A stretch of 60,379 bases of DNA, counting the filler, from Jimgerdemannia flammicorona (taxonomy: Eukaryota): NCBI GenBank assembly GCA_003990765.1. It is 3 parts of 3 records of this genome, joined end to end, with 100 filler letters (N's around TTAATTAATTAA, not from the genome) between each part and the next. Parts side by side here need not be neighbours in the genome. Positions count along the whole stretch, not along the records: positions 1 to 20,063 come from RBNJ01001771.1; 2 more parts are not named here. One strand, 5' to 3'. The notes beneath the pieces were generated by a model. It was given only the letters and a program-made list of their open reading frames with translations. It was not told the origin of the DNA and searched no databases. This document shows positions 504 to 26,068 of the stretch, piece after piece. The position numbers were made by a program, and so were the translations under genes. How positions within the stretch are numbered: position 1 is the stretch's first letter; the number at the start of each line of letters is the position of its first letter.

Positions 504-1434
504 GTCCTGAGCGAGGTCCCTTCCCAGACCCTGAACCTGATATCTACCACCTTACCATATTCCACCATGAAATCCTCAACTCTCTTCCTCATCTCCATTA
601 CTGTCACCATCGGTACTCCCTTCACCAGCAGTTGGACCACCCTGGGGTCCCACTTCAGGTACCGCGCCATCGGAACACATACCTCCCCAACCACCAATCC
701 AACCTTCAGTGCCTCCTCCAGCGGTGCCGCCTCCTCAAAACCCACCTCCACTCCTTCCAGTCCCTTCAAAAACTTCACAGATGCTGCACCTGCCACCTGC
801 TTAGCGATGAGCCCCAGCACCATTTTTGCCATCACCGCTAGGCCCTGGAAGCATAGTGTGACCATGAATACTGAAATCGATTTCTTGAGTAATGGGGCCA
901 CTGCCAGACCCGTTACACCATCTGCCAAGTCCCCTTGTCTTCTAAGCCTCAGCCACTCAACCTTGCCATCAGCCATCACATCTGGATTTTTTCCAGATTG
1001 ACAGTCCTAACACCATCAGCAGTCACACCCCCCCCAGCCACTACTCCTACAGCTCCACCACCCCCCCTTCCAAGGGCTGCACCCCCTGGCACCATCGCCT
1101 TCTCAGTCTCCTTACCCTTCTTCAGCCAGCCCTCCAGCCCCGATGCCTACTGTCTCCCCTTCACCATCTCTGCGAAGCTTGCCCTCCCAGATCCTGATCC
1201 TCCACCACCTCCACCACCCCTTCCATGTCCATCCGCCAGCAGGCCCCTCATACCTCCCCCCAGGCCTGGCCCCCTCCCCACCTGCTACCAGTCGAAAGTA
1301 CTAGGGCTACCCTGCCCAGTACATACCTCAGGTTGTCTGTTGGTTGCCATGTTGTTAGTCTCTCTTTGCTGAAAATGATGTCGAAAGTGCCTTCCAAAGG
1401 TTGTGTAACCTGAATGGTACTGGAAAGAGGGCTG
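504..1434 (-). mobile_element. L1/Tx1-like LINE copy A: 5' UTR and N-terminal ORF1, cut by hAT insertion
   Basis: Conserved 5' end (CAGCCCTCTTTCCAGTACCATTCAGGTTACAC) and ORF1 motifs DLADGVTGLAVAPLLKKS, WDPRVVQLLV and RFRVWEGT, shared with the other copies. Confidence 0.85.
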
Positions 1435-4400
1435 TTGCCTACCCTTATCTTTGTACAAAAGTGCCACCAGCTCTAAGTCCTGCTCTCCAACCTACTTGCC
1501 ATTTAGAATAATATAGTCGCAGAGGGCAGCCATCTCTTCCAGCATTCCAGGGACTTTTGCCATCTTCTTCCAGAAGTCCCATGGCAACCCATCCTCCCCA
1601 GGCACTGTTCCAAGCTTCATCGCTGCCAGGACTCCTTAAATCTCCTCCTCTTGGACTGATAAGATCAGGTCACCCAGCCCCTCTACCTGCAGCAGCTCCC
1701 ACTCCTCCAGTGTGTTGCCAATTGCCTCTGCATCAGTACCCCCTTCCTCCTCACTCCACAGACCCCACCAATTCTCCTTCAATACTCCTAGGATCTGCTG
1801 CATACCATGCACCAACTCTCCCTCAGCATCAATGACCCCATCCCACCAATGTCTCACCTGCCTGGCTTTGAGGAGCCTAGACAAGTACCTAGTAGGCCAC
1901 TCCCCCTCCTCAAGCCCCTGCAACCATAGCCTGGCAGCCATTCCTCATATATGAGTCTCCTCCTCCTCTCTCAATACCTGTTGCAGTTCCACCACTTCCA
2001 ATTTTGCCCTCCCTAACCTCCAGTCCTCCACCTCATCAGACATAAGCAAATCTGCCCACTCCAACTGCAATCTCCACAGCCTATCTGAAGCACACTGTAC
2101 TTGCCTCCTCCGCTGTCTCCCTGCCTCTCTACCAGCTCCACCCCAATAAATCCTCACAGCCTCCTTCAACCTCATTCAATGGACACCCACAGTCAAACCC
2201 TCCTGCCTTCAAAGTGGAACCTTTGCCTGGATGTCCTCTACCCATGAGTCCCACAACCCCTTCACAGCCAGCAGGGAGGAGTTAAGACACCAATGTCCAG
2301 GTCCATCTCCACTCCCCCCAACCACCTCTGCCCAAGCAGTCCCCAGTAATCAGACCATGGGTACCACACCACCTCCAAAGTCTTCCAGACATCAGTACCC
2401 CAACATTCGGCTGTCAAAATCCAATCAATCCTCATCCCTAGGCCATTCACCCAGTGTGTGTAGACTCTGGAGTTGCCCCACCATGTTCTGCCCATATCTC
2501 CTAAGGAGCTAAGGCTTTCTACCTCCTCTCATACATCTAGACCACCACTCCTCTCCCCAGCATTTCTCTCTCCATCAGTTCTATCCAGCTGTAGATTCTG
2601 AACTATGTTAAAATCACCACCAAGAACATTGACCCCTTCCTCCAAGAGAATGCCCTCCTCCAGTAGCTCCTTAATCTATACAATCCTCTCTCCCCTAGCC
2701 GCTGGACAGTAACAAGAGCCCACCCTCACCGATTCCCACCCTGGCCAGTACCATTCACCCCAGACCAAATGATCTCCCCTGCTCTTGATTTCCTCCAAAT
2801 CCCCTCTACCCTTCTTTACCAGAATTGCCACCTTTCCAAACCAAGTGGTAGCCCCACCCCATTCCTTAGTCCACTCTACCTGATCATCCTCATCCTCACA
2901 TCGAACATCATACAGTAAAAAGAGATCAGCCTCCAATTTTCTTAGCCATGTAAAAATGTTCTTATACTGCACAGATCCCCAAAGGTCATTCACATTGAGA
3001 GAGAAAATGTTAGTTGTACTCTTCATAAGGAATAATGTTAAAAATCAAACTTCTCCTCTACAAATCTATACTCAAGTCCTCCTATGCCAAATCCAAGATA
3101 TGTTCTGCTGCCAGTTCCTTCTTCTCAACTTCCTGTGCCTCTAATCCCCCCAGAAGTTCAACCATAGCCCCATCCTCTTTCTCCTCAAAGTTCTCCCGAT
3201 ACTCCACACATACCTCCCACCAGAACTGCAAACCATGTTGTTCTGCCCAACAGTAGGCAGCCCTCTCACCAGCAACAACCATCAGCAAGATCACAAGAAT
3301 CTCCACCTTCAGCACCTCCATCACACCATTACCTTGCAGGATCCATGTCCAGTACTCCTCTAGCATGATCCCTAGATCCACTTCTCCCAACACCTCAGTC
3401 ACAAGGTTATCCATCACCTTGTTCATCCACTGTAGATTCCCAATCTCCTTCCCTCCAGGGGTCCCCAGCTGCCCTGCATCCAGTATCATAGTATCTGCAC
3501 CAACACTGGCATCCTCATTCCACTCCTCCTCTGGGATATCCACCAGCTCATCCTTACCAACTGCCACCACCTGGCCCCCTTTCACCACATCTGGGACCCC
3601 AAAGGTAACTCGCTGGGCCCCCTGCATCGGAATATCCTCTGCCGCCCCTCTCCGCCCCCCCGGGCCCCTCCTGATAAGTGGGGGAGGAGTGCTATCTGAT
3701 TCCTCCTCTCAAACTTCAAAAGTACCATCTGCATAGGGATCCATACCCAGCACCTTCACCACCCATTCTTCCATCACCACCGCCTCCTTCCCTCCTTCAC
3801 TAGTCCATACACTGGCTTTGACACCTCCAGCCTCCTCAGCCCCATCTATCTTTCTCTTCTCCCCTCCAGACATCCTCGCCAAGAGCTCCCTCTGCCTCAG
3901 GCACCCCTGGGCCTGCTCCCACTACCTCTTGTCAGTGCGGACATGCTTCTCCTCTACAATCTCCAGGTGTGTTGACTCCTCAAAGAGCTTCCAGGCTTTC
4001 ACCCTCCTCTCTACAGCACCACCCAACTCCTCTAGCACCTCCAACAAGTCCTCCACCTCCTCTTCACTCCCTTTCACCTGTGACACCTTACAGATAAAGG
4101 CCCCCAACATCAATACTGAGGGCCAGTCTCTTATCTTCCCAGTGGCCTCCTTCTCTGCCAGCCAAATCCTGACATCGACATCACCTGTTCTGATCATTGT
4201 CCCCTCCTACACCTGAAAGCCGATGTCCATGACATCCTCATACTCTGCCATCACCTCCTCCACTCTCCTCCTAGTCTCCTCCTTAGTCACCATGGGCACC
4301 CCCCTCACCAGAAGCTGCACCACCCTGGGGTCCCACCTCAAGCACCTCACCAAGGAGACTGCTACCTCCCCAACTACTACTCCAGCCTTCAGGGCCTCAT

Positions 4401-5130
4401 CCAGTAGGCCTGTCTCCTCAAAGCCCACCTCAATCCCCTCCAGGCTCTTCAAGAATTTCACTGAGGCTGCCCCAGCCACCTGCTTCAAGATAAGCCCCAG
4501 GACCATCCTCACTATCATGCTAAGCCCTAGAAGCACAAGGTAGCTACGAACTCCAAAATCGACTTCTTGAGCAATGGAGCCACTACCAGTCCTGTTACAC
4601 TATCTACCAGGTCTCCTTTCCGCATTGGGAACCCCTGCCCCCCCTGACCATCAGCTGTCACATCTCTTTTTTTTTCCAGATTCGCTGTCACACCACCATC
4701 AGCAGTCCCGCCACTACCCCCAGCAGTCCCTCCACTTCTCCCACCTCCCACCTGTGAAGGTCCAGCTCCCCCAGCATCCCCAGCCTTCTGCTTCCCCTTC
4801 CCTCCTGCCTGATCACCTTGTGCTCCCCTCGGCCAACCCCCAGTCCTCAGCATGTCTGCAAAGCTCCTCCCCTGCTGCCCTCCAGCCCCCCCACTGGTGC
4901 CACCTCCACTACTTGAGCTACCCAGTCCACTTGAGCCACCGAAAGACCCCATCCCCAGCCCATGCCCCCTCCCAAAATGCTGCCAGTCGAAAGCCCCAGG
5001 TCCACTCAACCTAGTACGTATGTCAGCTTGCTTTCTGCTTGACATCTTCTTAATATCTTTCTCCAATAAACAAATCGAAAGTGTGTTTGTAAAATGTGTG
5101 TAATGTGAAATGTAGTGGAGAGAGATGTTG
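1435..5130 (-). mobile_element. LINE copy B (degenerate ORF1 about 5045-3050; ORF2 endonuclease to start of RT, 3026-1435)
   Basis: ORF2 starts MKSTTNIFSLNVN with AP-endonuclease motifs GGDFN and RIDWIL, then PGEDGLPWDFW. Many premature stops. Confidence 0.9.
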
Positions 5131-5575
5131 CTTCTGAAATTCTCCAAGTCCCTTCCGAAATCACCTGGTACACCTCTATGCCTTGAGGATGAGTGAGAGT
5201 CCCCCCCCTGAGTAAAGAAAGCCTAAGGGCCTGATGCACATCCCCCAGCCTACCAGAGCATATCAGTGAATTGGATGCTCACCACAAAGCCAGCCATATT
5301 GCCAGATGTAAGACTTCACATCACCTTGAGAACTTGCCAGTGGCTCCCAGAGCATGCCTCACACTGTCTGGCCCACAAAACGATGAAACCCTTGAATTCT
5401 TGAAAACTGTAGCCTTGAGGTTGGGGCAACTTGACACCATTGGACTTCTCTTCTCTCGCTGCTTCTGGCACACCCAACCTTGGGACACTGATGGCCCCCC
5501 TTTCCCTGCACTATAGGGATCCAATTTTCACCCAGACCTTTTGACTGGTATGGTTCAAGAGAAAGAAGTCCCTCC
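5131..5575 (+). mobile_element. Probable fragment of a different non-LTR element (post-RT region)
   Basis: Translation ITW..RVPPLSKESLRA..AHHKASHIAR resembles the W..P...GGLG....A...IxR motif that follows L1/Tx1 RT. Not homologous to the flanking copies at the DNA level. Confidence 0.35.
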
Positions 5576-8500
5576 TCCTCCCTTCTCCCCTTATCTTTGA
5601 ACAATAAGGCCACCAGCCCCAAGTCCTGCTTGCCAACCCACTCACCATTCAGAAGAACATAGTCACAGAGGGCAGCTATCTCCCCTAACACTCCAGGAAC
5701 CTTCACCATCTTCTTCCAGAAGTCCCAAGGTAACCCATCCTCTCCTGGCACTGTCCCTAGCTTAGTTGCTGCAAGGACTCTCTGGATCTCCTCCTCTTAG
5801 ACTGATAAGATCAAATTACCCAGTCCTTCTACTTGCAGTAGCACCCACTCCTCCAGTGTGTCTTCAATTGCCTCTTCATCAGCTCCCCCTTCCTCCTTAC
5901 TCTACAGACACCTCTAGTTTTCCTTCAGTACTCCCAAGATCTGCTGTGTACTATGCACTATATCACCCTTGGCATCCAAGACCCCATCCCATTGGTAGTG
6001 TACCCTCCTAGCTTGGAGAAGTCTTGACAGATATCTAGTAGGCCACTCTCACTCCTCAAGCCCCTGCCACCATAGTCTGGCTGCCATTCCTTTCATACAA
6101 ATCTCCTCCTCTTTTCACAATATATGTTACAGCTCTATTATCTCCAATTTCGCCTGCTCCAACCTTCAATCCTCCTCCCCTTCAGAATGAAGCAACTTGG
6201 CCCACTCCATCTACAATCTAATCAGCCTATTAAAGCACACTGTACTCACTTCCTTCTCTGCCTCCCAGCCTCCCTACCAGCTTCTCCTCAATAAACCCTC
6301 ACAGCCTCCTTCAACCTTATCTACTGGACATCCACAGATGATCTCTCATATATTCAGGTGGTGATCTTCACTTGGACATCCTCCATCCATGGGTCCCACA
6401 ACCCCTTCTTGGCCAGTAGGGAGGAGTTAAGATGCTAATGTCCAAGTCCATCTCCACTTCCCCCAAACTGTCTCTGCCCCAATAGTCCTCAGTGATCAGA
6501 CCAAGGGCACTACTCTATCTCCAAAGTCCTCCAAACATCAGCACCCCAATATTTGGCCATCAGAATCCAGTCAATCCTTATACCCAGTCCATTTACCCAG
6601 TATGTATAGACCCTCCTGTCACCCCACTGTGTTCTGCCCATATCCCCTAAGGAGCTAAGGTTCTCCATCTCCTCTCCTCCCACTTATCCAGTCCACCACT
6701 CCTCCCACCTGCACTCCTTTCTCTATCAGTTCTATCCAGCTATGGATTCTGCACTATATTAAAGTCACCTCCCAGGACATTAACACCTTCCTCCAAGAAA
6801 ACACCTTCCTCCAACAGATCCCTAATTCACTCAATCTGCTTATCCCTAACTGCAGGGCAGTAGCAGGAACCAACTCTCACTGATTCTCACCCAGGTTGGT
6901 GCCAATCTCCCCAGACCAAATGGTCCCCTCAGCTCTGAATTCCACCCAAGTCCCCTCTACCCTTCCTCACCAGAATCACCACTTTGCCATTCTAAGCAGT
7001 AGCCCCTCCCCATTCTCTAGTCCACTCCACTTGATCTTCCTCATCCTCACACTATACATCCTGCAGTAAAAAGAGATCAGCCTCCAATCTCTTAAGCTAA
7101 GTAAAAATGTTCCTATGCCACCCCAATCCCTGTAGCCCATTCACATTTAGAGAAAATATGCTAGTTGTACTATTCATAAGGAATAATATTGGTTATCAAT
7201 TATGCCCTCTACAAATCTGCATTCAGCTCCTCCTGTGCCAAGTTCAAGTCATGTTCCACAGCCAGTACTCTCTCTTCAGTCACCTTTGCCTCTAACCCAG
7301 CCAGAAGTTCTACTATTGCCTCATCCTCCTTTTCCTTGAAGTCCTCCCAGTATTCCAAGTATGTCTCTGGCAAGAGTTGAAATCCATAATGCTCTGCCTA
7401 ACAATAGGTAGCCTACTCACCAGCAATGATTACCAACTCAGCCTCCCTAATCTCATCCACTACATATCCCTCCTCTATCTTGAAAATCACAAGTATCTCT
7501 GCCTTCAATACCTCCACCACTCCATCTCCATGCAGAATCCATGCCCAATGCTCCTCTGGCATCACACACAGATCAACTTCTCCCAACTCCTCAGCCACAA
7601 GGTTATCCATCACCTTGCTCATCCACAGCAAGTTTCCCACCTTCCTCCCTTCAGAAGTCCCTGGTCACCCTGCATCCAGCATCATGGTATCTGCTCCCAC
7701 ACTGGCAGCCTCATCCCACTCCTCCTCTGGGACATCCACCAGCTCATCCTCACCAACTGCCACCACCTGGCCCCCTTTTGCCACATCTGGGACTCCAAAG
7801 TGAACTTACTGGGCCCCCTGCATCAGCACATCCTCTACTACTCCTCTCTTCCCAACCAGGCCCCTCCTGATAAGTGGGAGGGGGGGTGCCATCCAACTTC
7901 TGCTCCCAAACTTCAAAGGTACCATCAGCATAGAGGTCCTTACCCAGTACCTTTCCAGTCTCTTCCTCATTTGCCCCCACCTCCTCTCTATCTTTGCTAG
8001 CTCAGATGCTGGCTTCAACACCTCCAGACTCCTCAGCTCCAACCAACTTCTTCTTCACCCCTCCTTTTATACTTGCCAAAAGCTCCCTCTGCCTCTTGCA
8101 CCCCTGGGCCCACTCCCACTGCCTCCTGTCAGTATGGATACATTTTCCATCCATGACCTCCAGATGCATCAACTCTTCATACAGCTTCCAGGCTTTCGCC
8201 CTTCTCTCCACAGTACCACTCAACTCCTCCAGAGCCTCCAACAAGTCCTCCTCCTCCTCTTCACTCCCTTTCACCCTTGACACCTTACAGATAAAGGCCC
8301 ACTACATCAGTATTAAGGGCCAGTCACTTGTCTTCCCTGTGGCCTCCTTTCCTGTAAGCTGGATCCTGATATTGACATCGCCTGTCCTGAATGTTGTCCC
8401 CTCCCACATCTGGAAGCCAATGTCCACCACATTACTATACTCTGCCATCACCTCCTCTATCCTCCTCCTAGTCTTCTTCTTTGTCACTGTAGGCACCCCC

Positions 8501-9320
8501 CTCACCAGAAGCTGCACCACCCTGGGGCCCCACCTCAAGCACTACACCATGGGGACCACCACTTCCCTAACTACTACTCCAGTCTTCAGGGCCTCATCCA
8601 GTGGGTCTGCCTCCTCAAAGCCCACCTCAACCCCCTCCAGACCCTTCAGGAACTCCACTGAGACTGCCCCAGCTACCTGTTTCAAAATAAGCCTCAGGAC
8701 CATCCTCACTATCACTGCCAAGCCCCAAAAGCACAAGGTAGCTGCAAACTCTGAGATCGACTTCTTGAGCAATGGGGCCACTGCTAGCCTCATTACACTA
8801 TCTGCCAGATCCCTCTTCCATATTGGGAACCCCTGCCCTACCTGGCCATTAGCCATCACATCTCTTTTTTTTCCTGATTTTCCATCACACTCCTATCAAC
8901 AGTCACACCCCCAGCCACAGCCCCTCTAGCCCCTATGCTCACATCTCCCACCTGAGGGCTACTCCCCCTCCTGACACTAGTCTTGCCCTTCCCCTCAGCA
9001 GTGCCAGCCCTGGTTCCAGCAGGCCATCTACTCACCTTCACCTTGTCAGTAAAGCTGGAGGGACCAGGCTTTCCCCCAGATCCACCTGATACTATTCCCC
9101 CTCCAGAGCCTTTGCCACCCTTCAACTCTCCAAAAGCCCCCATCCTCAATCCATAACCTCTCTCCACATGCTGTCAGCTAAAAGCCCCAGGTCTACCTGA
9201 CTCAGCACACCCTTCAGAACTCTTGCTCAATGACATTTTTATAGTACCTTTTCTCTGAGTTGTGTTGAAAACTGTTGCTTAAAGTTTGTGTAATGTGAAT
9301 TGTACAGGAGAAAGGCTGTG
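5576..9320 (-). mobile_element. LINE copy C (5' end, ORF1, ORF2 to start of RT), heavily mutated
   Basis: Same 5' end motif at about 9320, ORF1 motifs, ORF2 ATG at about 7177, PGEDGLPWDFWKK...LVALLFKDKG at 5751-5580. Confidence 0.9.
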
Positions 9321-9485: not shown

Positions 9486-11544
9486 TATTATAATGGTATA
9501 GCCAGATTTGGAAGAAGGAAATAGGGAACAGACACTTGATTGTACCTAGTCCCAAAGTAGTATAGCTACATAGTTAGCAGTCCTCGATTCCGCCATTTGT
9601 TAAATATTTCGCAAAGTGTGAGATCGAGCTTCTCGATTTAGTATAGCATTTCACAACTGGTGAAATATTTCACAAAGTGTTAAATGACTCATAACTTAAC
9701 CACATAACTCAGTAATCATCTCATAGCTAGCAAACTTATATAAATAACCCAGTATCTTCAAGTGAATAAACCTCAGATCAAAATAGTTCAAAGCAAAGAG
9801 ATAGCAAAGGAACTAGTAAGCCTGCAGGCAGATATACTTTGAACTCACCCACTCTCCCCTGCAACTTCAAGAGACTCTGCAAGAGTCAGAACAGTCAAGT
9901 TTTCAAAATATAGAAATCTGACATACTTTCAAGAGTAAGCATCTGCTACATTACAACTTGGTGTCTATTGGCTGGTAATTCAAGATGAATCCCTCACTTT
10001 CAAGCTGAACAATGAACAACTGCAACAAAAACCCACACAATACAATCAGACAAAATGGATATAAGACCACCAGTATTCCACAGGTATACCTCAGATGAAT
10101 TAATCATCACCTTCATTGATGATTTCAAGCAGTATGCTGCTATAAGGACCCTGACAGCAGCACAGCAAGTAGCCCTCATGCCCTTCAGCCTATGAGGTCC
10201 TGCCAGAGCAGCATTCACAGCTACAACCCATACAGAAAATGATGCTGATGCTATACTGACAGCACAGAAGACCTGGCTCTAAAATACATACTATATAGAC
10301 GAGATCAAGCAAGCCCTGAAGGATCAGCTCAACACAATATGCCAGGGAATGAGTGAGGATCCAAACACATTCTATACCAGAATTCAATATCAGATAATCC
10401 TCACAGATTATGCTGCTGTTATCCGAGATTAAGTAGCCGAAGCAACCTTCATGAAAGGAGTCCACCCAGAAATAGCTATGGCCATCCGCTCATCACCAGT
10501 AATTCTGGATCTGCCACAGAAGGTCACCTATGCTCAGCGATACTGGATAGCCAGACATCCACAAGACCATACAATGGAAAGAGTCATGGGAGTCAAAATT
10601 GAAGTACCTAAGGCAACCAGTGTGATCCCTACCACAATGATCAATCGAAACACACCTCAGCCAAAAACTACAGAGCAGCAAAAGAACAGTGACCTTATGG
10701 AGGAACTCGCCAAAAGGTTTGCTGAAATGACTGCCCACCTGGGAGATGTGGTAAAGGAAATTCGAGGAAGAGACTGCTGCCCTGTTTAGCAGTTTGCCAC
10801 CACCTCAGATAAGAAGAAAGGTACCTGCTACAGCTGTGGAGAAGAAGGCCACTACTTCTATGAATGCATGAGCGAAACCAAGTACAAGGCTCAACCAAGC
10901 AATGCCACATGAAACAAGGAGTAGGTCAATACAATCACCTTTGAGGAAATTGGAGATTCTGATAAAGAAGAATAGGAGGCCTATCCTGCTCAGACTACCA
11001 AGAAGGATGTTCACAAGGAACCCTACAAGAGACCACCAGGAAGACCTAAGAAGAATCCAGTAGAAAAGCAGATAGAAATGGCCACCGAAAGCCAAGCTGA
11101 AGAGATGGACCAAGATATGGAGCTGGAGCAAGCAGTTCAAGATATCATCTGAGGAACTACCCCAGCCAGTGAAGGAGAAAGAGAAAAGAAACTTCGCAAG
11201 ACCAAGACTTTCAAGTATGATATCTTCAAGGACCTTAGCCAACAAAAGGTCAATGCAACCTTTGGTCAGCTTGCAGAAATCCCAACATTCAGATAACAAA
11301 TGAGATTTAGACTTGCCAAAACAACTAAGGAACAAGGATAGAAGATAACTGAGGCCAATAATATTCAAGAGGACTCAGGAGAAGAAAGTGAGGACAATTA
11401 CAAAATCTCTGCTTATGCAATATGCCAAATCAAAGATAGAATCTTTGAAGCCATTATTGATATGGGAGCAGGAGGATGTCTCTTCAGCAAGAAGGCAGCA
11501 GACTGCCTAGGTTGGGATGTGGAAGAAGCAACTAAGCTGGTGTT
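9486..11544 (+). mobile_element. Ty3/Gypsy family 1: 5' LTR (about 9486-9955), PBS, degenerate gag and protease, interrupted at 11545
   Basis: LTR ends ...ATTACA at 9955, followed by ACT-TGGTGTC. Gag with DIRPPVF and zinc knuckle CYSCGEEGHYFYEC (about 10825-10868). Protease AIIDMGAG (decayed DTG) at about 11450-11475. Confidence 0.8.
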
Positions 11545-12366: not shown

Positions 12367-12377
12367 TCCTTCCCCCC

Positions 12378-13205
12378 TTAGAAATCAACATCCTCGTTGA
12401 TTGAGAAATTGAGAACCAGGGGAGAGAAAGGTGGGGAATCCTCCTCAGGGTCATTACTATCTTCTTCAGGGGCAGGGGGGGTGGTTACTGGTGGTTTGCT
12501 GTCCAGGATGGAGAAGTCAATGAGGTCTGCAAATGGTTCTCACACTGGGTTTTGTACTGGTGTTGGGGTTCTCCATCTGATGTGGTTGGGGCCATCCAAG
12601 TAGGGCTCTTGATCTTCATGCCTGGGAATATCCATTTGAATAGGTGGTCCTTCAAAGAGGTCAGAGAGGCCTTGGAGCCATTGGTCAGGGTTGTCATTCA
12701 GGAGGGGGCTCCAGTAGGGTTTGCAGTCAGTAGACTTGGGGGTGATCCAGAAGTTGGCTTCTTGGGCTACCTTGATCTCTAGTTCATCGACCTCAGGGAA
12801 AGAGAGGTTCTGGAAGTCCTTCAGTTGTATATAGTTGAGGTTGGGGATCATGAAAGGTGTATGATGTATGATTTGATGGACCTTCTTGGCAAGTCTTTGC
12901 TCATGCCTGTCTAGGTGAGTCCAGTCAGAGATTTGGTCCATAGGCAGGTCCTTTGCATGTTGGAGGAGTTGATGGCCAATCTTGTATTCATGCCAGATCT
13001 CTAGGTGGCTGGTGGTAAGGTAGGCTCTGTCAATGAGTTCACGACGGTCAAGGACATACTGTCCTAGGTCTGGGCTAGAGAGGTTAAGGGCCTCTGAGTG
13101 GCAGTTCCTTCCTTGGATGGCAACCTGGATGTGTCCAAAGAGGCAGTCAATCTGGCTTGGGAGGGGCTGGCTACGGCGGGCAGTTTGGCGGTAGGTGGCA
13201 GGCAT
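12378..13205 (-). pseudogene. Accessory ORF3 of family 2 (275 codons, one internal TGA at 12540)
   Basis: The 221-aa ORF continues in frame through a TGA (likely CGA>TGA) to a TAA abutting the PPT. It is homologous to the ORF at 21233-22432. Confidence 0.75.
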
Positions 13206-13269
13206 TCTTGTCTTGACTTTTCTTTGTGAGGAAAGGGGGATGAGAGTTGCGAGATATTCTTGCCTTGGG

Positions 13270-13277
13270 TATTTATA
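13270..13277 (-). promoter_or_regulatory. TATA box for ORF3
   Basis: TATAAATACCC 65 nt upstream of the ATG, in the same context as the LTR TATA boxes at 12015 and 21036. Confidence 0.55.
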
Positions 13278-13847
13278 CTTATTCGCCCATCTGATGTGAC
13301 CTTCCTTTGGTCACGCTTTCTGGCAAAATGCATGACCTGTACTGTAAGCAGAGTATGTGCTGGTCACATGAGGAAATCCTGATTTCAAAGATCTCATCAC
13401 CCGTCTGTGGTTACACAGGGTTAACAGGTCTTGGTCCACTTTTTTTTTTGTCTGGTTGGCGCATTTGTGAGGACTGGCCATCCTTATCTAGGGCAAGGGC
13501 TCCCATTGTCACGGCTGGGGGTTCGAACCTCTCGGAAATAGACTTCTTGTAATCCGAGGCAATTCTTTAGTATCAATATCTGTCATGTGGATGGACTTAA
13601 ACTGGTTTCGACATTGTTGGCTTTCCTAAGTTTCACATGAAGCGTCCGTCATCATCCAGCGGAGATGACACAGATAGCATGAAATGGAGTTGTTCAAATG
13701 TGTTTTGCTGTACTGTACTAGATTGTTCTGTTGCTCGGGTATCTTCTTGTTAGTTATCCATAGTATTCCTTTTTTTGCAATGTTTGGTATTATATGTTTC
13801 CAGATAAAAATATGTGGTGTCCTTCTGCTTGCTGTGTGCTCCTAAGC

Positions 13848-16800
13848 TTAGAGCTGTAGTTCCTTCCTTTGCTGGGGGGTGAGTGTTTCCATGTAGTCCT
13901 GGAGGGCTTCGCGTGCATTCTTCAGGGCTTCTTCTTTTTCCCAGGTGGCATCATGGGTGGGGTAACCCTTCCACTTGATCAGGAAAAGGCACTTGAGCAC
14001 TTTGGGATATTTGCGGACCTTGTGGTCAAGTACTTCCTTAATTTCAAATTCCTCATGATCATTGATCCTAATTGGGGGTGGTGGTGGAACTATATGCTCG
14101 AGAAATGGGTTCTCATGGTAGTCCACCAATTGGCTGATATTAAATACTGGGTGTACCTGGATATTGTGGGGAAGTTGCAACTTGTAGTTGACTTCGCTGA
14201 TTTTTTCCATGATCTTGTATGGTCCAATTCTTCTAGCATGGAGTTTCTTGGCTGGTTGTTGTGCCAGGGTATTAGGGTGGAGGTGGTCTGTTCTAAGCAT
14301 GACCTTGTCACCAATATTGTAGGAGGCTTCTCTTTGTTTCAAGTTCGCATACTTGGTCTGGTAGTCTTGTGCTTCTATGAGAGCATCTCTTATCATTCGT
14401 GTAAGGTCAGAAATGGTCTCGGCCAGATCTTGGGCTGCTGGGACTGCTGATTTCATTGTAGTACTTGGGGTCCTTGGGTGTTGACCATGGTTCAGGAAGA
14501 ATGGAGTCTTCTTTGTAGAGGTTTGCTGACTGTTGTTGTAAGCAAACTCAGCATGGGCCAGGTACTTGTCCTAATCATTTTGCTTGTAACAGCAGAAGAT
14601 GCTAAGCATCTGTTTGAGAGTCCTGTTGGTTCGCTCGGTTTGACCATCAGTCTGAGGGTGGTAGGCTGTAGAGAACTTCAGCTTGGTTCCATGGAGGGAG
14701 AAAAATGCCTTCCAGAAGTTGCTTGTGAACTTGGCATCTTGGTCAGATACAATGGTACTAGGCATGCCATGTAGCCTGAATACTTGGTTGAGAAAGATCT
14801 TGGCAATCTCTGGTGCTGTAGCAGTGGTCCTGGTGGGTGCAAAATGGGCTTGTTTACTTAGGCAGTCCACGAATACTATGATGGCATCCCATCCTGCCTT
14901 GGTCTTGGGGAGTTGAACAATGAAGTCCATCGCAATCTGGTCCCAATTGTGACTCAGGATAGGCAAGGGTTGTAGGAGTCCTGCTGGTAGCTTGTTACCA
15001 CTTTTGAACCTTTGGCACATCTTGCATGAGGCCACAAAATCTTTGATATCCTTGGTTATCTTTGGCCAGTAGAACTCTCTTGAGAGGAGGTTGTAGGTCT
15101 TTTCAAAACCAAAGTGTCCTGCTGTCGGAGTATCATGGAGTTCCTGCATGATCTTGAGTCGCAGAGTATTATTGTTGGGTACAACCACTCTGTCATGGTC
15201 CCTGTAGATAAGTCCATCATGGTAGATGAATCTTTTGGCCATTTGCCTCATGGGTTCTGGAATCTCGGCCTCTGGGTTTTGGCAGAATTGAAGGAAGTTT
15301 ATCAGGGAACTGTCTTGCTGGTAGCCATCCTTGATCATTTGGATAAGATCTCCAATTACTTTCACCATGAAGACAAGTTCGTCTTCCATGTACCTGGAGA
15401 AACCATCCACCACATGGTTGGTTTTGCCTGGGATGTACTTGATTTCCATATCAAAGTTGGCAATGACTTCCATCCAGCAGGCTTATCTGTGGGTCAGCAT
15501 GAGCTGTGTGTGAATATACCTCAGTGCATGGTGATCAGTGTAGACCACAAATGGCTGTCCTAGGAGGAAATGGCGCCATTCCTGGAGTGCAGTGACAATA
15601 GCCAGGAGTTCCTTCTCATGGGTGGTATACCGGGTCTCAGCTGGTTTGAGCTTTTGGGAAAGGTAGGCCACTGGGCAGTCTTCTTGGCTGAGCACTGCTC
15701 CAATAGCAATGTCAGAGGCATCTGTGGTCAGAGTGAATGGTCTGGTAGGGTCAGGTGCAATTAGCACTGGGGTCTCAGTAAGGAGTCTCTTGAGATGGTC
15801 TATAGCCAGAGTGCATTTGGGGGTCCATTCAGCTTTGATGTTCACTCCTTTATGGGCCAGGCTGGTCAATGGGACTGTAATAGCAGAGTATCCTTGGATA
15901 AACCTTCAGTAATAACCGGCAATACCCAGAAAGTGCTAGAGTAGCTTGAGGGTAGTAGGGATAGGGATATCCTTAAGGGCTGATACTTTTCGGGGGTCCA
16001 CATTGATACCTTCAGCAAAGATGATGTATCCTAGGTACTCAATCTGGTCTTGGTAGAACTTACACTTGCTCATCTTGGCATAGAGCTGGTGTTCTTGCAG
16101 AAGAGTCAGTACTTGTCTAAGGTGGGTGTAGTATAGCTCTACTGTCTCGCTGTAGATTAGTATATCATCAATATACACAAGAACACAGATGTTGAGGAGT
16201 GGTCCAAAGATGTCATTCATCAGGTACTGGAATGTTGCTGGTGCATTGGTCAATCCAAAAGACATGACTCAGAACTGGTAGTGTCCAAACCATGTTCGGA
16301 AAGCTGTCTTCTCAATGTCCTTCTCATCAATGAGAATCTGGTGGTAGCCATTTCGCAAGTCCAGTAAAGAAAAGGTCTTGGCCTTGAAGATTTGGTGTAG
16401 CAACTCATCAATCTGGGCAAGGCATACTGATTCTTGATAGTGATCTTGTTGAGGGCTCTGTAGTCAATACATATTTGCAGAGAGCCATCCTTCTTCTTGA
16501 CAAATAGAATGGGGGCTCCAAATGGAGAGTGGCTGAGTTCAATGTATCCTTGGGCCAGTAGTTTGGTCAATTCATCCTTGAGGGTCTTGAGCTCGGGTTG
16601 GGCTAGTTGATAGATACTCTTGTATAGGGGTTCAGATCCTGGAATAAGATCAATTCCATGTTGGATTTGGCACTTGGGTGGGAGTCCTTGAGGATCTTGG
16701 AATACATCTTGGAATTCTTCGAACAGTTCTTGAGCTTCTGTTGGAATTGGGCTACTTGTAGCTTCAGTGACTTCTTGTACTGTATAGATGAAGTAGATGT

Positions 16801-17452
16801 TTTCCTTTTTTCGAGAGAGTCTCTTCATTTGAATGGCAGAGATGATTTCGATTCCTTGGTGGTTGGTACCTTCCTGGGGTATCAGGGTGATCTTTCTGCC
16901 TTCATGGGTCAGGTTAACCTCGTTGGTTCTCCAGTTGATGTCTGGGTTGTGCTGGGTCAACCAGGCTTTTCCTAAGATAATGTCTTGTTCTGGGAGATCT
17001 ATAATGCTGAAGTCCAACTTCTCTTGATATTTGCCAATCTTGAGTAAAAGGTCTTTGCAGATCTTAGTCAATGGTGCAGTTTTTCCATCACCAAAGGTAA
17101 TACTTCTTTTCTCAGCAGTGGGTCTGCTTTGGGCTCCAATCCTCTTGGCGGTCTTAGTGCTGATATAGTTTCTAGTAGCACCACTATCAAGCAAGACATT
17201 GACATTTTGTCTGTGAACTTGGCCTGTGAACTTGATGCAACTATCCTCCTTCTTGATGGTATTGAGCTCTTCATCCTCATTATTGTCCCAATTGCTGTCA
17301 GTCTCCTCAAAGTCAGTTTCTCCCCATCCTTCGCAAGGAGGGTTGTCTTGTTTGGGTTCCTCAGTCTGTTGAGCTTGGTGCTTTTTGGATTGAATTTTGA
17401 AAACTTTGGAGAGGCATGCATGGTATTCACCAATATATTCCATGCAGTACAT
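13848..17452 (-). pseudogene. pol: pol: protease, RT, RNase H, integrase, chromodomain
   Basis: [125 protein letters not shown]. Confidence 0.95.
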
Positions 17453-17561
17453 TCGAATGGAATGAGGGCATCATCCACATGGTGCATAACCATCTGCAAT
17501 TCTCTTGTACCAGTTTTCATCATCTTCCTTCATGGTAGTGACCTTTTGACTGGAAGGTTTG

Positions 17562-17980
17562 TTGGTAGATCCAAACCCTTTCTTGCCATGGTCTGTCTGG
17601 GAGAGTTCGGGGACTTCTTCGATGGTGAGATCTTGACGGATTTCTTCAATAATTGCTTGGGCAATTCTTTGGCCTGCTTTGACTTCAAATGATGTATCTC
17701 CAAAATTTCGCAAGATGACATGGATTTCACTAGTAAATTCTTGGTCAACTACTCCTCCTCCTAGCCCAATGTTGAACTCTTTGGCTAGGCTGCTTCACTC
17801 AGCAAGGCAGATGTATGTACCTCTGGGGGCTTGCATTGCAATTCCTGTTCACACTGTGGCATTGGTGCTTGGTGGGATGGTGAGGTCTTGGCTGCTGTAG
17901 AGGTCATATCCAGCATCAGTTGGGTGAGCCTTGGTAGGGATGGTAGCCTTGTACCATATCTTTTGTACTTTGATGACATT
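17562..17980 (-). pseudogene. dut: dUTPase domain between gag and protease
   Basis: All five trimeric dUTPase motifs are recognisable: DAGYDL, (R)SSLA, GVVDQEFTSEI, GQRIAQAI, HGKKGFGST. Two TGA stops at expected Arg codons. Confidence 0.9.
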
Positions 17981-18059
17981 CTCGGGATTCTTCTTTCCTG
18001 GACCTTCTCCAATGACAGTAATGTTCTGGTTACTGGGTTCGCCTGATCTGTTTCTCTTC

Positions 18060-19828
18060 TCAGGGCATTTGACTGAGATATGTCCTGCCTTCTTGCAGAT
18101 GAAGCACAATCCTTTTTCATGGAGCTGCTTCCTCTCATCCTCAGTGGGAGGTCTGGGTCCTCTGGGGTTTCGCTGGTTCCTTTAATCATATCTTTGATCA
18201 TATCTTTGGTCATTCCTTTGATCATTTCTTCTGGTAGGATTTCTCCTATCTTGGGTATCTTTCTTGTGTTCTTGATTTCATGGAGCTTGTACAGCAAGGA
18301 TTTCGCGGGCTCTTCTTTGTACTTGGGCAAAGCATCATGAGTAGTGGGGACATCCTTGGAGAAGACCTTGTTCCTTGATCTTCTGGGTGAGCCAGTCTGG
18401 TAGGGCTGCAAAGAGGTGATTGGCTCTGATACCATTGATGGCCAAATTGTTCTCCTGATAGGTAAGTCCAACAGTTTTGAGATAGGCATCCATTCTGGTG
18501 GCAAAGGTCTCTAGATCCTCTTCGCCATTCTTGTGGAACTTCATCTGGGACAGTTTGTTCCATGTTTCTTGTATGTAAGCCGCATTTTGGAATTTGGTCA
18601 GTAGCAAGGCCTTGAGTCCTGGGCCTGCTTTGTAGTCATCCCACCCTGGTCTATTGTTGCCAGGTACTTGTCTATTGACTTGAGGGCAGTTTTCCCAGGT
18701 TACTGGGTATTGTTTCAAGGTTTGCCAGAATTCGGCTGCTATTCTAGTGAAGAATGTGGATACTGTTTCTACTTGTGCTGCTGATGTGGCAAACAGCTGT
18801 TGAAGGGTGCTGTTCTGGTTGTTGGTGAGCATTCCTATAGGTACTCAGTTGTCATTCCATTGGTTTGCTCAGTAGTCTGTGTCAACTGTATTGATGAAGT
18901 TTTCGATGTTGCTGTTTTTTCCACTAAATGTTGAGATTCACAAAGTCTTGGTTGGTTTGTTCTGTTCAGCAATCTGTCCAACTATCCCTGCTAGTGCTGC
19001 TAGCTGAGTGGTCAGTACTGTAATATTGGCATCTACCATTGTGTTGACTATTGGTGGCAGACCTGTTGGGGTGGATTCTCTTGAAGATTGTTCCACTTGG
19101 TGGGGTTGTGGTGCTGTATGACTTGGGGTTACTTGATTCCCGGATATTAAGTCAAAGAGTCCTGTGAGAGAGGGTAAACCAAATCTCTGTATAGGTGGCT
19201 GAGTTGGTTCTGGGGTCTGATCTTCTTGGCCTGTGGTTCCTTGGTAAATTCCTAGGCCTACTGTTCCTCGTTGGCTATCATCAGACTGGTGACCTGTAGA
19301 TTCTTCATCTGACTCCCTTCCCTGATGAGATAGTGCATCCTCATACTGACTAGGTCCTTCAAAGAGGATATCAGTCTCTGGCTGGGTTGATGGGCCTGCT
19401 CCTTGTTCAGTAGTAGGGGATGGATGGCCTGCTTGCTCGTTCTCGTACCTAGTTATGGCAGAGGCGTAGTATACAACTAGCCTGTAGTAGAGGGAGGTCT
19501 TGGTTGGGGTATGATGATATCTATCAGAGGCAATCTACTCGGTAGCTGCTTCTCTTGCAGCAGGGGGTATAATATAATCTAAAAAATCCTGGGTGGCTGC
19601 ATTAGTAGATTCTGGGGTCCTAGTGGTTCCAATGTGTCCTCGGAGGAGTTCGTAGAACCTACAGCAGCTAACAATATTCCTAAGTCCTGGGTGGTATGTC
19701 CTAAAGACCTGGTATAGATCCTTGTAAGCCTGGTCAATTACAAGCTGGTGGGTCCTTGGGTCTGTAGTTTCCTGATACCACCTGGTCCTAATGGCAAGAG
19801 CTTCTCTGGCTCTGGTTTGAGGATCCAC
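18060..19828 (-). pseudogene. gag: gag with long N-terminal extension and CCHC knuckle
   Basis: Reading through several stops, the frame from ATG 19828 runs into the capsid-like region (ORF 18335-18832). Knuckle CFICKKAGHISVKC at about 18109-18068. Confidence 0.8.
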
Positions 19829-19914
19829 AGTTATTTCTGGGGGTTACTCCTGTCCAAGGTTGGTCTTGTTCCAACTTTAGGAGTATGTTCTTTGGTGCCT
19901 TCTTGGCTGGTAAT

Positions 19915-19926: not shown

Positions 19927-20063
19927 AGTTGTAATAACTCTCACTTCTATCCCTCTCTTATCCTTAGGATAATTAGGGAAGTGGACTATTACTTAGGGAC
20001 TTAGTACACAATGTGTACCAAGAAGCCTTCAGTTGAGGAAGCGCTCACTTAAAGTAGTTGTAG

Positions 20064-20554: not shown

Positions 20555-22616
20555 TGTAAGAGGGTTACTTTTTAGGGTAACCATTACGTAGTTCTAGAAG
20601 GGTTTTCTGGAAGTTCTGGATATTCTAGAAGACCGTTTTCTTATGGTTAAGATCAATTTCGTATGGAGTACATCCTCTATGCTTATTGATTTCAAGATCA
20701 GGTTGACGTCTCAACCAAAGTCCTTTTCTGGACTAGTTCTGGATGTTCAGGATTTTCCATGTTTCAGGAAGTTCAAGAAACTAAGACCAGCTTAGTTGAA
20801 TTGACGTATCGCTGCAGACAATACCCAATTAGGAAATTTCGTGACAGGGTTAGGAGTAGGACCTAACAGAGAGCAGATTTACTTAAAAGTGGTTTGTGGG
20901 TTATGGAATAGGTTTATTTGCTATTCATAATATTGCTATACTAGGAGTAGTTGTGTGAAGGGGTATTGTAGGGAAGTGCTCAGGAGTTGTGTTTGGATTG
21001 TTCAAGTCTGAGATTCTGAGGTCTGGGGGAGGGGGTATTTATACTAGTGAGGGGCTATCTAGACTAGGCTAGATATGGATGTAGCACTAAGTGCTTTGCT
21101 GAGTCGGAATACAGTCATATAGTATAAGTGTGATCTGACATGTCAAGGGATCGTCTGACTGCTGAGTCAGTTCACAGTCATGTCGTACAAGGCTAATCTA
21201 AGTATACTATGACTGCTAGGCTATTTATGGGTTTAGGCACTATCTGGGTAGTCTTCGATGACATCACCATCGATTGCATCATCTCTGATGATGTAGTCAT
21301 CTAGGAAGAGTGGTTCACGGATTACTTCTTCTTGTTGGCTGAGGTAGTAATACATTGAGACTTCATCTCCATCCCACAGGATAGCATCGTCTGTTTCGTA
21401 TGCTGGATAAGGTGTTGGTGGGCGAAGGATGGGTGTACTGTCTTTGCTTTCATCGGATTCACTGTCTGCATACCTTCTATAGGTTACGGCACTATGAGTT
21501 ATGGGGTTATAGTATGCTGGCGGCTGTTCATGTTGCTCGTACTCAGGTGGTGGAGTGGTTGGTTCGATCTCGAGGGTTGTCTGAAGGTACAGGTTGTGTT
21601 CTCCAGTCTCTTCATTGTAATTGAAGTAATCAGGGGTGAACGCAGGTTGGTATTTGTGCCAGTGGTCATTGTCCCAATAAGTCTTGTATGCAGTTATGAA
21701 CTGTTGTAGGTTTATCGGCAAGGTTGGCAGAGTGATCAGAGTTGGCAGAGATCCTTGGCTAGAGGTCATGTTGATATCAGAGGGATCATTGTCTTCTGCT
21801 TCATCTTCATCGAAGTGGATTATATCGTAGACGTCCTTCATAGCGTATCTGACTTGAGGCATTTGCAGGATGTGGTCATCAGGGTGCGAGAAGGTTCTGT
21901 CTGTGGTTTTGACATACTCGAGGTACTTGTGGTTGAGTTCTTGTATCATGTCATCGATTTGGCCATAGGACAGGGTAGCAACCATTTCGCTGGTAGTAAC
22001 TCGGAGGCAGGGAATAAAGGTGTTGTACTCATAGAAGAGTTCTCGATGTTTGCGGGCGATGAGCTTCTGGTGTTGAGACATCTGGGTAATATCTGTATCA
22101 TGGTGGTGTTCGACCATGTCTTCTAGGAGGCGGCCGATCTGGTAGTAGCTTGAGATTTGTCCGATTCGGTGGGCCTCGCTAAGCATGTTCAGGGCGTTCC
22201 ATCGGGCTTCCACGAAGTAGAGGGGTACTAGGCTATGGATATTCATGAGGGGCAGAGGGGGTGTGGCTCGGTTGACAATGGTATTCCAAATGTCAGCGTA
22301 GATGTGGTTGTAGATCTCAGTGGTCATGTTTGTGTGTTTGGAAGTTGTGGTTGTTGTTTGTTTTGGTTCTCTAATTCGACACGTCTTGGTGCTCAGTATA
22401 TATGCATTTGGTCCTGATTGGTAAGGTTCCATTTGTGTAGATCTTGTGTTCCGTGACTTTGTATTGACTCAGCTTTGTGCACTGTGACTTCAGTTTGACT
22501 CAGCTTTGTGATCAAGCAGGTGATTTCCAGATTTGTTTGGAGGTCGTGTGTGATTTCAGTGGCTTTGTTCAGAGGGTGATGTATAATTTCGGTGGCTTGG
22601 AGGTTGTGTGCTTACA
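20555..22616 (-). repeat. 2062-bp LTR (TGTAAG...CTTACA) containing an ORF
   Basis: 6-bp inverted termini, PBS adjacent at 20540-20551, TATAAATA at 21036-21043. The second LTR is not in the window. Confidence 0.75.
21233..22432 (-). CDS. LTR-encoded uncharacterised protein (399 aa; likely start MTTEI at 22327, 364 aa)
   Basis: Uninterrupted ORF with a helical-looking N-terminal domain homologous to ORF3 at 12378-13205 and an acidic/Pro/Tyr-rich tail with PPEY and PPAY. TATATA about 70 nt upstream of 22327. Confidence 0.8.
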   Translation of the reverse strand: MEPYQSGPNAYILSTKTCRIREPKQTTTTTSKHTNMTTEIYNHIYADIWNTIVNRATPPLPLMNIHSLVPLYFVEARWNALNMLSEAHRIGQISSYYQIGRLLEDMVEHHHDTDITQMSQHQKLIARKHRELFYEYNTFIPCLRVTTSEMVATLSYGQIDDMIQELNHKYLEYVKTTDRTFSHPDDHILQMPQVRYAMKDVYDIIHFDEDEAEDNDPSDINMTSSQGSLPTLITLPTLPINLQQFITAYKTYWDNDHWHKYQPAFTPDYFNYNEETGEHNLYLQTTLEIEPTTPPPEYEQHEQPPAYYNPITHSAVTYRRYADSESDESKDSTPILRPPTPYPAYETDDAILWDGDEVSMYYYLSQQEEVIREPLFLDDYIIRDDAIDGDVIEDYPDSA

Positions 22617-23963: not shown

Positions 23964-26068
23964 TATAATATAGTAGATATATAACTATATAAATATATCA
24001 GATTTTTGTATCTTAAAACTTGATCTTCTTTAACTCTACAGAGTTCTCAGGATATAGAGGTGGTGAGTTTGAAGTATATCTGCCTACAGGCTTACTAGTT
24101 CTCTTACTTTCTCTTTGCTTTAAACTATTTTGATCTGAGGTTTATTTACTTTAGATATTGGGAATATTTATATAAGTTTGCTAGCTATAAGATGGCTAAA
24201 TTATAACTATATTTCCTATAAGTCATACTTTAATATCTATAAATACTTTAATATTTATGAATACTTTAATATCTGTAAATACCCTAACATCTGTTAAAGT
24301 TCCCATATGTTAAATATAACTACTATTTGTAAGGCTATACTATATTTGGGAATCAGATTCAGATACTACAATTAAATGTCTATTTTTCTGATTCATATTA
24401 CTAATTCAGATCAACCATCATAACTTCCTTCTAAATAGGTAATTTGTCTCTGAAATATCCATTCACTCAAACTCCCAAGCTTCTATAATTTGTATCTCCT
24501 TGTACCATACAATCTGTATTATTATGTTCTCCTAATAGTATCTTTTGATATATCCAAAGTCTCCTGGAACTACTTCTTAGAGATGGGCTAGAGCTGGCTT
24601 ATCATCTTTAAACAACTTATTAACTTATTTGGCAACTGTGATCTAAATATAAGAGAGCCAGTACTTTCTGATCAATCTTCTTTTTCCATCTCTGACTATG
24701 AGTGTAGCTATCTCAATTTGAAGTATTTTTGAAACTTGGTCTGATTCTAATAAGCCTTGAAATATGAGATTTATAACAAGTATGTCTGAACTATACTCTG
24801 GATGCTGTCAAAGGATTCTTTCATGATTGGTGATTCAGTAGTATACTATTGTCTTTCTATGGCTTATTGTATAGTACTAGTGATTTTGAGGGCTACATTA
24901 GTATTTCATTGATTAGTCATAATACTTCTTGAGTTAGTTTTGATAAATGGTAGTAAGGATGATTGTGTCTGAGAGTTTTAATAGCCAAAAGGTGGTTCCT
25001 TTTATATCTTGTACCAAGTAAGGTTCTTCCTACTTAGGCTTTAGCTTTTATGACTATAAAGCTTCTACTATATTCTAATATATCAGGACTTTATCTCCTA
25101 TCTTGATAATCTCCAGAGGCTTGTGAATCTTTTCTGTATTATTCTATTATAGTATCTGTATCTTAGTTATATAATTCTCAGCCTTCTTTCTGATTTGGTA
25201 TAGTCTCTATATCTATATCTATATATTTTCATATAGTATCTCTATTAGATAATAAGATTTCTTGAGAACTTTCTTCTCCAAACAGTATCTCTCAAGAGGT
25301 AAAATAGGTGCTTTGTAATCATATATCTCAACAAGCAGATAATGCTATTAGCAGATAGTGATCCTAATTTTTATAGTTATTACAGATCTTAGTGATGATG
25401 TTCTTGAGAGTCTTATTGGTCTCTTCTGCTTGTCCATTTCTCTAAGAGTGATAGGCTGTAGTTTGAATATACTAGATCTTATACTTTTTGTAGAGAACCT
25501 CAAAGAACTAGTTTATAAATTCTGTTCCTCTGTCTATAGTTATTTGCAATAGGGTCTTGAATTGGCAGATTATTTCTTTGTAGAAGAAATTATATATTGG
25601 CTTCTTTGAGGGGTCCTGCCTCTATCCATTTTGTAAAAAGGTCTACAATGATAATGATATATCAGTTGCTAGTCAAAGTCAATAGTAAAGGACCAATTAC
25701 ATCTATTGCTATATAGGTAAATAGTACTAGTTCTATATGTGCTGATCTGGAGCTTTGATTTTGTTAATCTTATTTCTATTTCTGGTATTTGTCACAGGTC
25801 TTGACAAATCATCTGATATCTTTCTCTATTTCTGATCACTACATTATTCTTCTTACTTTATCATATATATTTGTTTCTCTTAGATAGCTAAGTTTATATA
25901 CTAATTTCATTACTTACTCCTTCTTATATTTAAGTATAACTTGTAGCTTCTCTTTTAGTATTTCTCCATCAATCTCAAATTGTTTCCATATTCTGTTAAT
26001 AATCATTTGTGTCTATTCTTCTAGTTGTTGGGACATCTTTTGCTATCCCAGATAGGTAATAATTCTAT
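23964..26068 (-). mobile_element. Ty3/Gypsy family 1: hypermutated integrase, PPT and 3' LTR (about 23964-24424)
   Basis: The LTR is the reverse complement homolog of 9486-9955. Integrase remnants GPL..IVDLFTKWIEA and TTAYH..NGQAE.TNKTLK. Very AT-rich. Confidence 0.8.

Follow-up and report, generated by a model that had tools for sequence, protein, structure and literature searches.

A selected third gene in a Jimgerdemannia flammicorona chromovirus belongs to a family of Gypsy accessory proteins with a probable remote link to DUF3102/ParB-type helix-turn-helix domains

What is the function of a third gene that lies where an LTR retrotransposon would carry env and that encodes a soluble protein? 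The available portions of a review by Vicient and Casacuberta (2020, PMC7264820) treat as an open question what extra ORFs do in LTR retrotransposons, describe ORFs in sense orientation that lie between pol and the 3′ LTR (aORF-3S) as a class mostly of unknown function, and cite gene23 of maize Grande, an antisense gene with its own promoter that encodes a nuclear protein. Fungal chromoviruses with a dUTPase and with an "add. ORF" to which no function is assigned are also on record, in the part of Novikova et al. (2010, PMC2864245) available to us. Here we analyze such a gene, ORF3, in a window of 60,379 nucleotides from J. flammicorona, which consists of three contigs joined by N linkers. Extra 3′ ORFs are of a known kind; what is new here is a lead to DUF3102/ParB-type helix-turn-helix proteins.

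Results

A Third Gene in a Decayed Chromovirus

The element, which represents family A, is decayed and lies on the minus strand of contig C1771 (window 1–20063), part of a 231-Mb assembly. Its features are as follows.

19930..20063 (−), stub of the 5′ LTR at the contig end
19915..19926 (−), primer binding site, TGGTAGCAG...
13848..19843 (−), decayed gag-pol: zinc knuckle, dUTPase, protease, RT, RNase H, integrase, SH3, chromodomain
13850–13848 (−), pol stop
13462..13531 (−), conserved noncoding element after pol
13266..13278 (−), TATA box of a putative internal promoter, context GTATAAATA..CC
12378..13205 (−), ORF3, sense to the element, 275 codons
12732..13160 (−), conserved core of ORF3, modeled as helical, aa 16–158, with a putative helix-turn-helix at about aa 89–113
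12381..12545 (−), acidic, Pro-rich tail of ORF3, aa 221–275
12367..12379 (−), polypurine tract (PPT), overlapping the ORF3 stop codon
11545..12366 (−), 3′ LTR, 822 bp, TG...CA, with TG at 12366 and a TATA box near 12022

Profile matches to the pol domains (Chromo, E 5e-12; SH3_Tf2-1; rve; RT; RNase H; protease) reveal the order protease, RT, RNase H and integrase with a C-terminal chromodomain, and TG...CA ends, a primer binding site and a PPT are all present, as in Ty3/Gypsy chromoviruses. The primer binding site, TGGTAGCAG, is presumably of the tRNA-iMet type. The 5′ LTR stub differs from the 3′ LTR at 3 of 133 bases by direct reading of the aligned pair. A dUTPase lies between the zinc knuckle and the protease both in family A (17474–18181, minus strand) and in a second family, B (L033 1239–1886).

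ORF3 begins at an ATG at 13205, 643 nt past the pol stop, and its TAA (12380–12378) overlaps the PPT; the reading frame extends into a pre-PPT motif, also found in families B and C, which explains why its stop adjoins the PPT. Rereading of the sequence agrees with a preliminary description of the locus as to the ATG, the 275-codon extent, the distance of ~640 nt from pol and the position of the stop, but that description had missed an in-frame TGA at codon 222 (12540–12542), and thus the open part of ORF3 in the window copy is 221 aa. The same stop at codon 222 occurs in 9 of 44 full-length copies sampled, while 22 of the 44 are open throughout, a share that is an upper estimate because the sampled copies were mostly chosen as best matches. 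Genome-wide, a first look gave 6111 candidates, and all 150 that were scored are 82–100% identical.

The encoded protein contains no hydrophobic segment, its highest 19-residue Kyte–Doolittle mean being 0.58 and that of the first 20 residues −1.14. Top 19-residue values in the homologues described below are 0.98 (family B) and 0.17 (family D), and neither a signal peptide nor a transmembrane segment of the env kind is apparent in any of the three. The hydropathy scan thereby agrees with the earlier view that ORF3 is not env, and we rejected the env reading on this ground. The tail is acidic, with 13 D/E, 1 K/R and 9 P in residues 226–275, and its short motifs DLIxF and PxVLNF are kept in diverged homologues.

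ORF3 Is under Purifying Selection

Codon models were applied to natural copies with stop codons masked. Within-genome ω values, which are inflated by post-insertion decay, were 0.66 for ORF3 (45 copies; 2dL 43.8 versus ω of 1) and 0.64 in 22 copies retrieved with an integrase motif, with 0.61 for the core, 0.49 for aa 166–275 and, for comparison, 0.54 at the pol end of family A. The spacer between pol and ORF3, in contrast, gave 0.97–0.98 in all three frames (56 copies; 2dL 0.1–0.2). Thus dN/dS is not about 1, the value that the preliminary description had set against its own reading, and a neutral frame was rejected. The homologous ORFs of families B and D gave 0.26 and 0.47, respectively. 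In addition, both ORF3 and pol show an accumulation of shared variants at third positions, a pattern absent from the spacer, and comparison of ORF3 with a metagenomic homologue, L159 (58% identity), gave a dN of 0.26, a dS of 1.37 and a ratio of about 0.19.

ORF3 is therefore a real, selected and soluble third gene without env features. The possibility that it is an env-like protein, a captured and already characterized host gene or a neutrally open frame draws on its env-like position between pol and PPT and on the broken state of the window copy; against it stand the lack of a hydrophobic segment, ω well below 1 next to a neutral spacer, the lack of any named match in Pfam, PDB sequences or the protein collections, and homologues that, where their context is known, are all in Gypsy elements. 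We consider it highly improbable. The best explanation is that ORF3 is a functional accessory gene of a Gypsy lineage that is dead in the window copy.

A Candidate Internal Promoter Upstream of ORF3

The motif TATAAATA, which had been reported at 13270–13277, is indeed present at 13277–13270 on the minus strand, 72 nt upstream of the ORF3 ATG, and is the sole TATAWAW in the spacer. Of 56 copies, 54 retain it intact, and it is one of the 14 most conserved among the 634 8-mers of the spacer; the ORF3 ATG is intact in 53 of 56. The context GTATAAATA..CC recurs at the ORF3 TATA and at the TATA boxes in the LTRs of all four families (A–D), and the distance from a TATA-like motif to the ATG is 72 nt in A, 78 in B and 80 in L159. 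This conserved TATA motif is the basis on which we regard ORF3 as putatively separately promoted. Between TATA and ATG, family A has a pyrimidine run followed by AG, so the ORF3 message could also be a spliced one. Outside the TATA box, similarity of the ORF3 promoter to U3 did not exceed chance (254/1000 shuffles), and a search for other motifs common to U3 and the promoter regions gave none above chance and none that was operator-like.

The spacer also holds the conserved noncoding element at 13462–13531. Two of its blocks are common to family A and to family C, which has no ORF3, and the second block is present in L159 as well (0/1000 shuffles for each comparison; positions elsewhere, L087 about 1800–1880 and L159 9–54). 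In A and C it contains a palindrome, GGTTCGAACC, that to our eye resembles a Pol III B box, and no tRNA or Rfam match was found around it. The element is possibly a packaging or boundary signal.

ORF3 Defines a Protein Family in Several Gypsy Lineages

Two further regions of the window, outside contig C1771, encode homologues.

20555..22616 (−), family B 5′ LTR, 2.06 kb, on another contig, with a homologous ORF in U3
21233..22324 (−), family B homologue, 363 aa from the second Met
24466..24920 (−), third homologue, decayed, short D-type, with stops and a frameshift

Family B is a sister chromovirus; its ORF is wholly inside the LTR and was seen in 5′, 3′ and apparently solo LTRs (20 loci). It probably starts at the second Met, as judged from its ATG (22324), which is present in 21 of 22 copies, and CCAAT- and TATA-like motifs lie about 78 nt upstream; a 399-aa start was rejected, the first ATG being present in only 4 of 22. 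The preliminary alignment of ORF3 with this protein could be reproduced (BLASTP 26.2 bits, E 6e-4) but is marginal as a lone pair: 16/5000 global and 34/5000 local shuffles reach its score and the hhalign probability is 1.1%. Indeed, pairwise and two-family profile comparisons are in general too weak alone (hhalign probability 0.7–1.5%). The acidic, Pro-rich tails that had been noted in both proteins are alike in composition but do not align, and homology of the tails was therefore rejected. The U3 of family B also carries TGAGTCA repeats, two before the ORF and one after (window 22400–22616 and 21035–21235, minus strand), which we take to be sites of the AP-1/Gcn4 type. Old, AT-rich copies of the LTR ORF (L032 8309–9256, L035 5027–5950 and L045 4606–5466; 39–67% identity, 11–17 stops) form a second, much older layer of decay.

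The relationship becomes significant once more relatives are added. A joint A+B profile found family D at about 30 loci, with E values from 1e-6 to 0.09. Family D elements are Gypsy elements without chromodomain, and an ORF of 153 aa overlaps their pol stop; this ORF has no acidic tail, and no TATA of its own was seen. The homologue at 24466–24920 is of this type, follows directly on the decayed integrase of a nonchromodomain Gypsy element and is 50–59% identical to P0006/P0010 (E 1e-16 to 1e-24). Searching 1.84 billion representatives with an A+B+D profile gave 16 proteins at E up to 0.001, of which the 10 that were looked up are unnamed or hypothetical and metagenomic. Profiles that leave families out reach the same grouping: when built from A together with its clear orthologues, a profile detects B and D at P 7e-7 each; one built from B alone gives A a P of 8e-5; and one built from D alone picks up A and B weakly, their scores being reached by 3 and 2 of 1000 shuffles, respectively. 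A profile made from nine distant proteins assigns 45 bits to A, 51 to B and 63 to D (0/1000 shuffles each), values that are partly circular because A and B were part of the query that retrieved those nine. On sequence comparison, ORF3 of family A, the B and D ORFs and the diverged metagenomic proteins are thus confirmed as one family sharing ~120 core residues. Together with the selection data, the leave-out profiles bear out the proposal of a conserved, non-env accessory family that includes the LTR-borne ORF.

Word-seeded searches yielded 1 homologue among 1197 candidates for A, 1 among 7971 for B and 9 among 22 for D, all unnamed or hypothetical. Atlas matches for the family were to unnamed clusters only (0.90–0.93); the best two for a distant homologue (0.93) are eukaryotic and most commonly Mucoromycota, which is a lead only. 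No characterized host gene, which would have counted against the preliminary description, appeared among the matches from Pfam, PDB sequences or the protein collections.

Wherever the context of a homologue is known, it lies in a Gypsy element, right after integrase or in U3. In L159 the ORF stop falls in the PPT before TG, as in family A. Among the four local families, pairwise RT identity to A is 56% for B, 53% for C and 39% for D; family C, an abundant chromovirus without ORF3, is accordingly as close to A as B is. The landmarks that flank the ORF3 site on either side are separated by 121 nt in C, by 1119 nt in A and by 1236 nt in L159, and therefore promoter and ORF behave as a cassette of ~1 kb. 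The family A element of the window is itself nested, in opposite orientation, within a family D element (window 9493–9956, plus strand, and 10003–11374), which shows a D-type LTR (89% identity) and then gag-like frames.

These arrangements bear on the idea that the ORF3 domain binds DNA in the service of integration, as a partner or appendage of integrase that tethers or protects cDNA or guides target choice. The ORF always follows integrase directly or lies in U3, that of family D overlaps the pol stop, as it would for coupled translation or a frameshift, and in the metagenomic protein P0036 the ORF3 domain is in frame behind a chromodomain. However, P0026, from the same cluster as P0036, starts just after the chromodomain; A, B and L159 have their own TATA-like motif and an ATG far from pol; and the acidic tail is under selection. 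We consider an integration role unlikely.

A Predicted Helical Fold and a Probable Remote Link to DUF3102

Pfam gave no match over cut-off for the ORF3 core, in keeping with the initial impression that it holds no named domain. The profile and structure searches that had been proposed gave a confident fold and a profile lead, though no Foldseek match at E 0.001 against PDB or BFVD. The AlphaFold model of the core is all-helical (pLDDT 88, pTM 0.81; 25 sequences), with a 96-residue subdomain at pLDDT 90 and a predicted helix-turn-helix at about aa 89–113 of ORF3, in which basic residues are kept and the first turn varies between families.

In the VIA structural search, 7 of the best 50 matches are DNA-binding domains of SopB, VirB, ParB, KorB and Spo0J, with 78–88 residues aligned, most of the 96-residue model, at Z 3.0–4.5 and rmsd 4.3–5.8. 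Among these are SopB (Z 4.5, rmsd 4.7, 83 residues), VirB (Z 4.1, rmsd 5.0, 83), ParB (Z 3.6, rmsd 4.3, 82) and KorB (Z 3.4, rmsd 5.3, 78). A Z of 3.0–4.5 can mean no more than a common arrangement, the matches are not independent because these proteins are relatives of each other, and the top match, at Z 5.2, is unrelated and stands above all the ParB-type matches. Structural scores are low throughout (Z 3.0–4.5 at rmsd 4.3–7.2), and a further structural search showed the same trend. Three more of the best 50 are Raf1, which we take to be akin to ParB. Two DUF3102 proteins are among the best 50 BFVD matches.

Profile comparison served as a separate test. Against domains from prokaryotic genomes (14 DUF3102, 19 DUF1016_N, 10 HTH_ParB and 23 TetR), the alignment of the family profile with DUF3102 spanned 84 columns, with a score of 24.3, an E of 0.0013 and an hhalign probability of 18%; 0/60 and 0/250 block shuffles (0/310) reached that score, and the reversed profile scored 9.8. 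DUF1016_N (E 0.035), ParB (E 0.18) and TetR (E 0.19) fell within the shuffle nulls, and DUF3102 itself links to ParB (55%) and DUF1016_N (89%). When the family HMM was run over 714 prokaryotic ORFs, the top 25 included 13 of the 33 labeled DUF3102/DUF1016_N, 3 ParB and no TetR, with a best E of 0.089. The reverse search gave a weaker signal: only 7 and 9 of 25 members exceeded the shuffle 95th percentile, compared with 2 for ParB and 3 for TetR, and the best single score was a TetR. None of the 25 family members matched DUF3102, DUF1016_N or HTH_ParB in Pfam at E up to 10, a search of PDB sequences with the family gave five rows (best E 0.23), and no Pfam match to the N-terminal ParB/CTPase domain was found, nor does the all-helical model show one.

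Comparison of ORF3 with DUF3102 (PF11300), DUF1016_N (PF17761) and ParB/SopB/KorB/VirB shows the same helix order in the predicted model, with an aromatic-x-IG-x-x-L helix before the putative helix-turn-helix, and the 84 profile columns shared with DUF3102 are colinear. However, ORF3 scores below the cut-offs of these Pfam groups, lacks the ParB N-terminal domain and any nuclease, and has added N-terminal helices and an acidic tail. On balance, the ORF3 core is probably remotely related to the DUF3102/ParB-type helix-turn-helix group.

The helix-turn-helix likeness could instead have arisen by chance, ORF3 being an RNA- or protein-binding accessory factor that serves export, translation control, copy-number control or trafficking through DLIxF. 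The Z values are low, a translation repressor from a phage and the coat protein of a closterovirus are among the Atlas feature matches (0.89–0.92), and the top Foldseek PDB row is M2-1 protein (E 0.97). The Atlas and M2-1 matches are, however, at chance level, whereas DUF3102/ParB-type proteins recur in three kinds of search, and we give this explanation little weight.

Discussion

The reading that we tentatively prefer, while holding it at somewhat below even chances, is that ORF3 encodes an acidic-tailed DNA-binding protein that regulates the promoters of its own element. The protein would be made from a short transcript begun at the internal TATA box and would enter the nucleus, where its helix-turn-helix would bind the element's own U3 or internal promoter; once bound, it would change transcription of the element, with the acidic tail as activation region. 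The transcript, the DNA binding, its target and the activation are steps that we infer. Such a protein would act in the manner of foamy-virus Tas, to which it would not be related. A transactivator function gains indirect support from the probable DUF3102/ParB-type helix-turn-helix and the acidic tail. Counting against a regulator are the lack of a shared operator motif, the absence of the tail in family D, the chromodomain fusion in P0036, the success of family C without ORF3 and the low values of all structural scores.

Plant VANC proteins are anti-silencing factors, and ORF3 could be a sequence-specific factor of this sort, keeping off or removing methylation at the element. Copies show heavy transition decay (kappa 15–24) with many R-to-C/H/stop changes, from which it would follow that the host methylates or mutates them, and the predicted fold is a DNA-binding one. 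Against this, ORF3 shows no enzyme domain and no similarity to a known anti-silencing factor, and family C expanded without it; an anti-silencing role therefore appears rather improbable.

The regulator reading has a working model in foamy-virus Tas/Bel1, described in the consulted part of PMC8003144 as having an internal promoter and activating both the LTR and that promoter. Like Tas/Bel1, ORF3 is a 3′ accessory gene with an internal promoter, here putative. In contrast, Tas/Bel1 belongs to a retrovirus with env and has no sequence match to ORF3, whose function we infer.

Among retrotransposons, ORF3 resembles aORF-3S, as characterized in the available portions of PMC7264820, in position, sense orientation, presence in most copies and pol-like conservation. 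The aORF-3S there are env-like, some with transmembrane segments and spliced messages, whereas ORF3 is soluble with its own TATA and a probable helix-turn-helix. The "add. ORF" of PMC2864245 is likewise an extra ORF of fungal chromoviruses, dUTPase-bearing fungal Gypsy elements are recorded there as well, and the part of that paper available gives no sequence or family for it. The bdelloid ORF3s, in the accessible text of PMC5408684, are also of one type across unrelated lineages, with modular gain and loss and a dUTPase in pol; they differ in being env, GDSL esterase or DEDDy exonuclease, typically spliced, and no helix-turn-helix is mentioned in that text. In fungi, the available portion of PMC4738411 places ParB-type helix-turn-helix domains in chytrids only, fused to adenine methyltransferases. 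The portion of PMC3248453 available holds nothing on such an ORF3 family, and our search of openly accessible article text found neither a published description of the family nor literature linking a retrotransposon with DUF3102.

In its widest form, the regulator reading would be that a transcription factor of their own, built on a DUF3102/ParB-type helix-turn-helix that came from bacteria or phages, is carried by several Gypsy lineages in early-diverging fungi. Promoter and ORF would move together as a cassette among the end of pol, an internal site and the LTR, and thousands of LTRs, including solo LTRs, would thereby encode the regulator, in an independent fungal counterpart of complex-retrovirus transactivation. 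We regard this extended scenario as doubtful. If ORF3 does bind DNA, a retrotransposon would be supplying itself with a regulator derived from a domain of prokaryotic type, and the version carried within LTRs has spread through the genome in very many copies. The family, compact, foldable and kept by selection in at least three lineages, offers a concrete test case: the predicted recognition helix and the candidate promoters can be tested, with family C, which lacks the gene, as a natural control.

Other Features of the Window

Beyond the elements described above, the window contains head-to-tail repeats of 2.4–4.3 kb at 191–8900 (−), 26000–34000 (+), 40300–42100 (−) and 45700–55600 (+), with extreme GC skew (about 0.5) and a 33-bp tandem array at the ends (191–501 and 55358–55621). 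An endonuclease/exonuclease/phosphatase domain lies in a repeat array at 52184–53170, and the repeats are probably arrays of a non-LTR element. An intronless ORF of 716 aa with BTB and SPRY domains is present at 36177–38327 (−).
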